Assembly: GCF_003018115.1 (NCBI RefSeq)
Contig: NZ_CP027457.1
Source of the DNA: Escherichia coli
GTDB taxonomy: Bacteria; Pseudomonadota; Gammaproteobacteria; Enterobacterales; Enterobacteriaceae
Direction: 5' to 3' (one strand)
Length of the DNA: 64,000 bases
Below are positions 57,043-57,408 of the stretch, one piece after another (the first letter of the stretch is position 1; the number at the start of each line of letters is the position of its first letter). The notes beneath the pieces were generated by a model. That model worked only from the letters and a program-made list of their open reading frames with translations. It searched no databases and was not told the DNA's origin. The position numbers and the translations under genes were made by a program.

Positions 57043-57408
57043 GATTTTATTCCATGTTGATTGATTTGTTACAAATATATATTACCTAATGAAATAGACT
57101 ATCAAAAAACGCTCATTTATTTAGACCCTATCTTTAATTTGAGTGTATGAGCGCACAATAGCCAGGGTGGTTTGAGTATCCTGGAAATTCAGAAAAGTAA
57201 ACTCTTTGAGAAAGACGAGCAGAACGCCTGAAAATATGCCTTTCCCTTCAGGTTTGTCTGTGGATACCACTTAATGATTTGAAAGGGCAAGCTACCATCA
57301 GGCTGTTTGCAAAACTCAGGAGGCAAGCAATGAGGACACTACTTTCGGTGAAGTGGGGGAGTTAAAGTCACCTGCATAGCAGGTGACTTTAACCAGGCGA
57401 ACGCGTTA

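Follow-up and report, generated by a model that had tools for sequence, protein, structure and literature searches.

The perfect palindrome just past the fadL stop codon in the window (the whole 64-kb stretch of DNA analysed) is an ordinary Rho-type 3′-end structure of the class described by Dar and Sorek. We consider it probable that it serves as a protective 3′ stem-loop of fadL mRNA, with Rho termination downstream, at the edge of the yfdF/icaT island. Established are the fold, the point at which the fadL transcript ends, a Rho-sensitive read-through signal near that point and the course of the insertion. Because the class is well described, and the fadL 3′ end and its fold already stand in published supplementary tables, we rate the palindrome as already known; what is new here is small, namely a hairpin at what appear to be the island's first bases that replaces fadL's lost terminator and whose loop is inverted between lineages.

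In the proposed mechanism, the palindrome would be transcribed as the last structured element of fadL mRNA and fold into a 15–16-bp stem-loop that would define and protect the 3′ end of the transcript. RNA polymerase would pass the hairpin, Rho would load on the C-rich, G-poor RNA just downstream and terminate transcription inside the fadL–yfdF spacer, and 3′-to-5′ exonucleases would trim the fadL RNA back to the stem base; the inner 9-bp GC stem and its UUU may add a little weak intrinsic termination. Hairpin and Rho site would together stand in for the terminator that fadL lost and would probably also stop fadL transcription from entering the silenced island.

Structure of the palindrome and its locus

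A repeat search of the window returned an inverted repeat with arms of 15 nt each (57361–57375 and 57379–57393), 100% complementary and separated by a 3-nt gap. As a 33-mer RNA, either strand folds with a dG of −22.7 kcal/mol; the fold of the fadL strand has a z of −9.1 and was equalled in stability by none of 200 shuffles, and an extra G–U pair (57394/57360) can lengthen the RNA stem to 16 pairs. The pattern occurs once in the 64-kb window and in none of 100 shuffles. In a census of perfect hairpins across the 64 kb it ties for the longest stem, with just one other of 15 bp, while the maximum perfect stem in dinucleotide shuffles of the window (n = 30) was 11 bp; the palindrome is well beyond chance expectation. 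An earlier note on this DNA had described it as a perfect palindrome with a 15-bp stem, and the + strand sequence quoted there is correct; its start at 57361 holds, and its end is 57393 rather than 57395. The distance from the fadL stop, given there as 14 bp, is 15 nt (57394–57408), fadL being encoded on the − strand.

Table 1. Features around the fadL 3′ end, in window coordinates
Feature	Position	Strand	Basis or remark
Perfect palindrome, 3′-terminal stem-loop of fadL mRNA; on the fadL strand GTTAAAGTCACCTGC-TAT-GCAGGTGACTTTAAC	57361..57393	−	Repeat search, RNA fold, mapped K-12 3′ ends
Palindrome loop, TAT on the fadL strand; ATA in K-12-type genomes	57376..57378	−	Alignments
fadL CDS, TGA stop at 57411–57409	57409..58755	−	ORF list and RefSeq annotation of matching loci
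7-bp hairpin ACGCGTT-CTGAT-AACGCGT spanning the fadL stop	57401..57419	−	RNA fold
C-rich, G-poor tract, putative rut region	57301..57360	−	Base composition
MxiE-box-like sequence TGAGCGTTTTTTGATAG in the yfdF promoter	57099..57115	−	Read against the consensus GTATCGTTTTTTTANAG (PMC9769918)
yfdF/icaT ORF, 422 aa	55774..57042	−	ORF list; icaT identity from PMC9241512
yfdF/icaT island, ~1,752 bp, 34% GC, apparently with the palindrome as its fadL-proximal end	55642..57393	−	Filled versus empty sites, outgroups, GC
Ancestral bidirectional intrinsic terminator AAAAAAGGTGAGT-attgcg-ACTCACCTTTTTT	55603..55634	.	T-tail score 5.33; also in island-free genomes
mlaA	54838..55593		Converges on fadL/yfdF from the other side

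The yfdF gene is co-directional with fadL and begins 366 nt downstream of it, and the fadL 3′ UTR measures 48 nt to the end of the stem. The intervening spacer had been called a 366-bp AT-rich one; the length is right (57043–57408), and the AT-richness applies to part of it, the GC content being 40% over its whole length, 46% in the 260 nt next to fadL, where the palindrome lies, and 25% in the 107 nt next to yfdF. The MxiE-box-like sequence, which agrees with the consensus at 12 of 16 specified positions, is found downstream of the palindrome at a distance of ~245 nt. Strain F9792 is 100% identical to the window over the 366-bp spacer and also over a 371-bp stretch comprising the fadL 3′ end with the palindrome.

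No U-tract follows the palindrome on either strand, a terminator scan of 56900–57600 returned 0 sites, and the full stem has a T-tail score of 0.94, whereas the terminator on the mlaA side nearby reaches 5.33. The earlier note had likewise seen that a U-tract is missing and had concluded on that ground that this is not a typical intrinsic terminator; we agree, since it is the lack of a U-tract that sets the palindrome apart from the canonical form. A canonical intrinsic terminator carries a 7–8-nt U-rich tract after a GC-rich stem, and the site was rejected as one (tail score at best 2.58 versus 5.33; 0 scan sites).

Two other hairpin or pairing features of the locus deserve mention. The hairpin at the fadL stop codon, with the TGA within its loop, is older than the island, lies outside it and is found in island-free genomes. 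Its counterpart in outgroup L019, CCGCTT-CTGAT-AAGCGG, has three pairs changed on both sides in a compensatory manner; it is missing in outgroup L021 and weak in outgroup L020, and a G-to-A change breaks the stem in some E. coli. Separately, a spacer segment (57288–57299) is complementary at 11 of 12 nt to the yfdF start-codon region (57032–57043). It could mask the yfdF start codon on read-through RNA, and is probably a chance match because the upstream arm is polymorphic among strains. The fadL 3′ region itself (57409–57700) is only 81–84% identical to the window in ~1,212 of 5,426 E. coli genomes and at least 95% identical in nearly all the remaining ones, so the alleles are sharply bimodal; FadL is a phage receptor.

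Several known element types were tried and rejected. The palindrome occurs in one place per genome, is unique in the window and lacks the REP consensus, unlike a REP/BIME or other interspersed repeat. An integron attC site is an imperfect hairpin with RYYYAAC at its 5′ side, GTTRRRY at its 3′ side and extrahelical bases, whereas the palindrome has the core order reversed (GTTAAAG...CTTTAAC), a perfect stem free of bulges and only 33 nt. An Rfam scan at permissive E-values gave best overlapping matches of 15–19 bits (E 2.7–7.9) against gathering thresholds of 42–48, and no family was assigned. By eye, the core of the palindrome (AGGTGAC) resembles the stem of the ancestral terminator (AGGTGAG) over 6–7 nt, a likeness compatible with chance.

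Mapped 3′ ends of fadL mRNA

In the Term-seq data of Adams et al. 2021 (eLife, PMC7815308, Supplementary file 1), the 'primary' fadL 3′ end of MG1655 lies at 2462694(+), flanked by ...GCAGGTGACTTTAAC/TCCCCC, where the slash marks the end. Read at the K-12 locus, this position is the last paired C of the 3′ arm and equals window position 57361. An independent placement of the primary fadL terminus, at 2462694–2462697 with signals of 0.92–0.99, comes from the TRS study (Nat Commun 2023, PMC10687069, Supplementary Data 2–4), which calls it in several RNAtag-seq and Term-seq datasets and prints the same hairpin fold (−22.7 kcal/mol), with a longest U run of 3. The fadL 3′ ends of the two datasets fall 0–3 nt past the last paired base in K-12, the source of all the RNA data, whose hairpin has a 13-bp perfect stem, an A–A mismatch and an ATA loop and differs in these from that of the window's strain. 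Term-seq or other 3′-end mapping of fadL mRNA was the check that the earlier note had proposed, and these published K-12 maps supply it, putting the end on the last base of the stem; the note had passed over this ordinary explanation.

A Rho termination region follows 15 nt beyond the stem, at 2462709(+) or about window position 57346 (Adams et al. 2021, PMC7815308, Supplementary file 2). Upstream/downstream reads there were 69/30 untreated and 65/152 with bicyclomycin (Rho score 5.38, p = 3.9e-11), counted in 800-nt windows of which the downstream one spans the silenced yfdF, so the bicyclomycin effect could partly be de-silenced local transcription of this H-NS-silenced gene. In the literature searched, no paper treats fadL or yfdF together with bicyclomycin.

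Three further sites on this stretch appear in the same sources. A second, weaker 3′ end at K-12 2462836 (about window position 57219), 142 nt past the hairpin and within the spacer (TRS, PMC10687069), is consistent with some transcription passing the hairpin. Adams et al. 2021 (PMC7815308) report a 3′ end in the fadL 5′ UTR at K-12 2461244 (about window position 58811), 56 nt upstream of the ORF, which may reflect premature termination, and a Rho termination region antisense to yfdF, on the opposite strand at K-12 2463820.

Dar and Sorek 2018 (PMC6061677) described Rho-dependent transcripts whose steady-state 3′ ends are precise and come right behind a stable stem-loop; these ends are free of a U-tract, are followed by RNA with more C than G and arise as PNPase and RNase II trim the transcript back to the stem. 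At fadL, the steady-state 3′ end lies right after a stable stem-loop (2462694–2462697; −22.7 kcal/mol), there is no U-rich tract (0 scan sites, a full-stem tail score of 0.94 and a maximum U run of 3), and C exceeds G just downstream, by 12 to 4 in the first 30 nt after the hairpin and by 21 to 10 in the first 60 nt. Over a 78-nt stretch of this RNA the composition is 32% C and 19% G, and the tract remains G-poor in variant lineages. By analogy with the class, exonuclease trimming would also act at the fadL hairpin.

A less likely reading is that RNA polymerase is released at the hairpin itself by a weak Rho-independent terminator, composed of the inner 9-bp GC-rich stem (GUCACCUGC/GCAGGUGAC) and the UUUAAC that follows, the outer A–U pairs forming only after release, as happens at bidirectional terminators with an A-tract. 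The best tail after this inner stem, UUUAACUCC (TTTAAC), has a T-tail score of 2.58, near the TransTermHP threshold of about 2.5, and other hairpins in the window have a similar AAA-stem-TTT layout. From the inner stem to the mapped 3′ ends it is 6–9 nt, and the TRS signal is sharp and strong (0.92–0.99). Against this, only three U follow the inner stem and its tail score is half that of the ancestral terminator (2.58 versus 5.33), the terminator scan found nothing at the palindrome, the Rho-dependent read-through signal starts 15 nt downstream of the stem, and the weaker 3′ end 142 nt further on indicates that some polymerases get past the hairpin. Intrinsic termination at the inner stem may contribute alongside Rho.

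Cleavage by RNase III within the fadL 3′ UTR, a processing role suggested by the earlier note, is highly improbable. The RNA does form a long perfect duplex, but E. coli RNase III substrates typically span roughly two helical turns, more than a stem of 15–16 bp, and the mapped fadL 3′ ends lie at or just beyond the stem base instead of inside the stem.

Island insertion, conservation and loop inversion

Among 5,426 complete E. coli genomes, the fadL 3′ end is present in 5,424 and the 366-bp spacer in 4,297, leaving 1,129 genomes that lack the yfdF island. In island-free genomes, among them STLEFF_47 and the Seattle 1946 strain, the neighbouring genes fadL and mlaA converge across a 61-bp spacer that holds a textbook bidirectional terminator, AAAAAAGGTGAGT-tttgcg-ACTCACCTTTTTT. 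The same terminator directly follows fadL at loci L002, L003, L019 and L021, and in the window it stands beyond yfdF, beside mlaA. In three outgroup Enterobacteriaceae (MlaA 85–89% identical) fadL and mlaA are also directly convergent, two of the three with a single bidirectional terminator and the third, a Cronobacter, with two terminator hairpins in a 137-nt spacer. This island-free arrangement in both E. coli and the outgroups shows that the empty site came first and that yfdF was inserted into it, which agrees with the conclusion of Silué et al. 2022 (PMC9241512), who renamed yfdF icaT and inferred that it was acquired after phylogroup B2 had split off. The island has a GC content of 34% versus 50% for fadL.

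In the window's lineage, homology between empty and filled sites stops 3–4 nt before the palindrome; in the lineage of MFDS1019527 and RMDEC465 it stops exactly at the palindrome's first base (filled ...GCTTA/GTTAAAG, empty ...GCTTA/ATAAG). Judged from these alignments, the palindrome appears to be the first sequence of the yfdF/icaT island, so it would now do the work of fadL's lost terminator. One proposal of the earlier note is borne out here, that the palindrome could mark a boundary of the yfdF insertion, homology in yfdF-less E. coli and outgroups ending 0–4 nt before it. The comparison with yfdF-less genomes that the note had suggested turned out more informative than foreseen: such relatives share the fadL 3′ end and do lack the palindrome, as in the note's refuting condition, but have a classical bidirectional terminator in its place. 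The insertion parted fadL from a strong intrinsic terminator (5.33) and left it with a U-less hairpin (0.94 for the full stem, 2.58 for the inner stem); the ancestral terminator now serves mlaA and yfdF, with the island between it and fadL. The island is H-NS-silenced and the MxiE box is the sole mapped control element of yfdF (PMC9241512, PMC9769918); we infer that the new fadL 3′ end insulates this silenced DNA from fadL transcription. The palindrome may either have come with the island or have arisen at the junction.

Composition varies within the island, whose first ~240 nt (57150–57393, with the palindrome and the C-rich tract) have 40–47% GC and whose remainder (55650–57150) has 29–37%; the segment beside fadL may not share its origin with yfdF proper. 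The gene contains an internal tandem duplication of ~210 bp (56464–56569/56674–56779, copies 77–80% identical), which probably explains why the ORF has 422 aa here and 352 aa in K-12.

The island position also bears on an origin by mobilisation, in which the palindrome would be a relic of integration, either a DNA junction of fold-back or hairpin-ended form or an end that IcaT's transposase-like ancestor recognised, and its RNA role incidental. IcaT is reported to be weakly similar to an IS256-family transposase (PMC9241512), the palindrome sits at the island's first sequence, it is perfect at loci L006 and L010, in the lineage with the flank most like the empty site, a TA duplication possibly flanks the island, and an IS3 copy has inserted in one arm in strain DTU-1. 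Yet the other end of the island has no matching repeat or hairpin, there is one palindrome copy per genome, and a 2-bp duplication is expected by accident in 1 of 16 cases. A Pfam search of YfdF returned no domain and hence no transposase domain, and among the best 120 of its 417 homologues all those with a named source are from E. coli or Shigella, so no donor of the island was found there. A plasmid search with the whole island gave E. coli records of 0.37–4.9 Mb, mostly chromosome-sized ones filed as plasmids, and a phage search gave one match, to the mlaA-side flank only; no true plasmid or phage carries the island or the palindrome. We regard the relic reading as quite unlikely; it concerns origin and does not exclude a present role in RNA. 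A combined version, in which the palindrome is an integration footprint of icaT/yfdF that was later co-opted as the fadL 3′ end and still undergoes natural loop inversion, seems to us about as unlikely. The palindrome was also rejected as a transposon or IS terminal structure, be it a terminal inverted repeat or a subterminal hairpin of the IS200/IS605 type: no inverted repeat links the island's ends, YfdF has no Pfam transposase domain, and there are no other copies or plasmid or phage homologues.

If a dimeric regulator or nucleoid-boundary protein controlling yfdF/icaT or fadL used the palindrome as its DNA operator, this would suit the perfect dyad symmetry and the location at the edge of an H-NS-silenced region. 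We take the palindrome by eye to be unlike FadR, VirB and MxiE sites. It lies ~245 nt upstream of the MxiE box and goes unmentioned in both papers on the yfdF promoter (PMC9241512, PMC9769918), loop inversion and a common A–A mismatch are tolerated in thousands of genomes, and the RNA 3′-end data already explain its presence. The protein-binding palindrome that the earlier note had listed, here weakly tested, is in our estimate very improbable, given its distance from the only mapped control element of yfdF.

As the 3′ stem-loop of fadL, the palindrome is kept throughout the genomes that carry the island. A 55-nt probe found the region in 4,297 of 4,297 of them, with a match over at least 80% of its length in 4,291, and never at more than one locus per genome in island-bearing E. 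coli, the second 'place' per genome in this search being the palindrome matching its own opposite strand. Across 13 genomes spanning the identity range, 1 of 30 arm positions is variable versus 10–16% of other spacer columns, which weakly indicates constraint. Three genomes chosen for low palindrome identity have one rare arm variant each: A to G makes a U–G pair, C to U makes a G–U pair, and T to A makes a mismatch. Pairing thus survives in two of them, on fadL-sense RNA only, numbers too few for statistics, and a covariation test is impossible because the arms barely vary.

The perfect 15-bp form occurs in the window and in the MFDS1019527/RMDEC465 lineage, and most genomes have GATAAAG, which places an A–A mismatch at the second pair and leaves a 13-bp perfect stem. 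Its being shared by these two suggests that the perfect palindrome is probably the ancestral form. Among ~100,000 species genomes, the exact core has one match, in Lachnospiraceae bacterium NC2008 (L005, 4854–4880), where a 12-bp stem AAAGTCACCTGC/GCAGGTGACTTT with a T-tract lies between a gene for an RNase H-like exonuclease and cheR. This sole match is an ordinary T-tailed bidirectional terminator, unrelated to the fadL locus, so it represents chance convergence, and it likewise speaks against a mobile origin of the palindrome; the representative E. coli genome in that set has no core match, presumably because the island is absent there. Insertion sequences have entered the region in two strains, as an IS3 copy inside the fadL-proximal arm of the palindrome in the laboratory strain DTU-1 (L011) and an IS1 in the fadL–yfdF spacer of FORC_042 (L009).

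On the fadL strand the loop reads TAT in the window, O157:H7 and others, and ATA, its exact reverse complement, in K-12, O104:H4 and others. A 45-nt probe that discriminates the loops gave 1,002 full-length matches (TAT) and ~2,880 on the opposite strand only (ATA), and the 55-nt probe gave roughly 1.1k TAT versus 3.1k ATA genomes. Three adjacent substitutions that amount to an inversion indicate a hairpin-mediated event, for instance template switching or recombination of one arm with the other. At 57337 and 57324, 40–50 nt off, linked SNPs are combined with the two loop states in all four possible ways, and recombination has made the region a mosaic. Inversions of small hairpin loops flanked by inverted repeats are known from chloroplast non-coding DNA, and template switching at quasi-palindromes is known from E. 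coli.

Relation to known systems

The locus offers a clean natural example of terminator replacement, in which a silenced, acquired island came to lie between a gene and its strong intrinsic terminator. The role of that terminator would have passed to a hairpin without a U-tract and a Rho site, both at the edge of the island, which is the switch in termination mode that Dar and Sorek predicted. Annotators gain a coordinate for the fadL 3′ UTR (48 nt), and the loop-inversion polymorphism might be used as a small marker when hairpin-mediated mutation is followed in E. coli populations; the wider significance is little.

Like known hairpin-loop inversions, the palindrome has a 3-nt loop that in some lineages is swapped for the exact reverse complement, with no change in the arms, and it differs from them in being a natural polymorphism at a bacterial mRNA 3′ end. 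With REP/BIME elements it shares the form of an extragenic palindrome after a gene, able to block 3′ exonucleases, but it is single-copy and stands outside any repeat family. Canonical intrinsic terminators, including the one between fadL and mlaA, likewise have a GC-rich stem between A and T residues just after a stop codon and mark a 3′ end; unlike them, the fadL hairpin is followed by only three U, and inhibition of Rho raises the signal downstream.

The likeness to the class of Dar and Sorek extends to the stable stem-loop, the lack of a U-tract, the 3′ end at the stem, the excess of C over G downstream and possibly the bicyclomycin-sensitive read-through nearby. Compared with that class, the fadL stem is unusually long and perfect, and a dependence on exonucleases would be carried over from the class; the hairpin also stands where a horizontally acquired island begins, not within native intergenic DNA.
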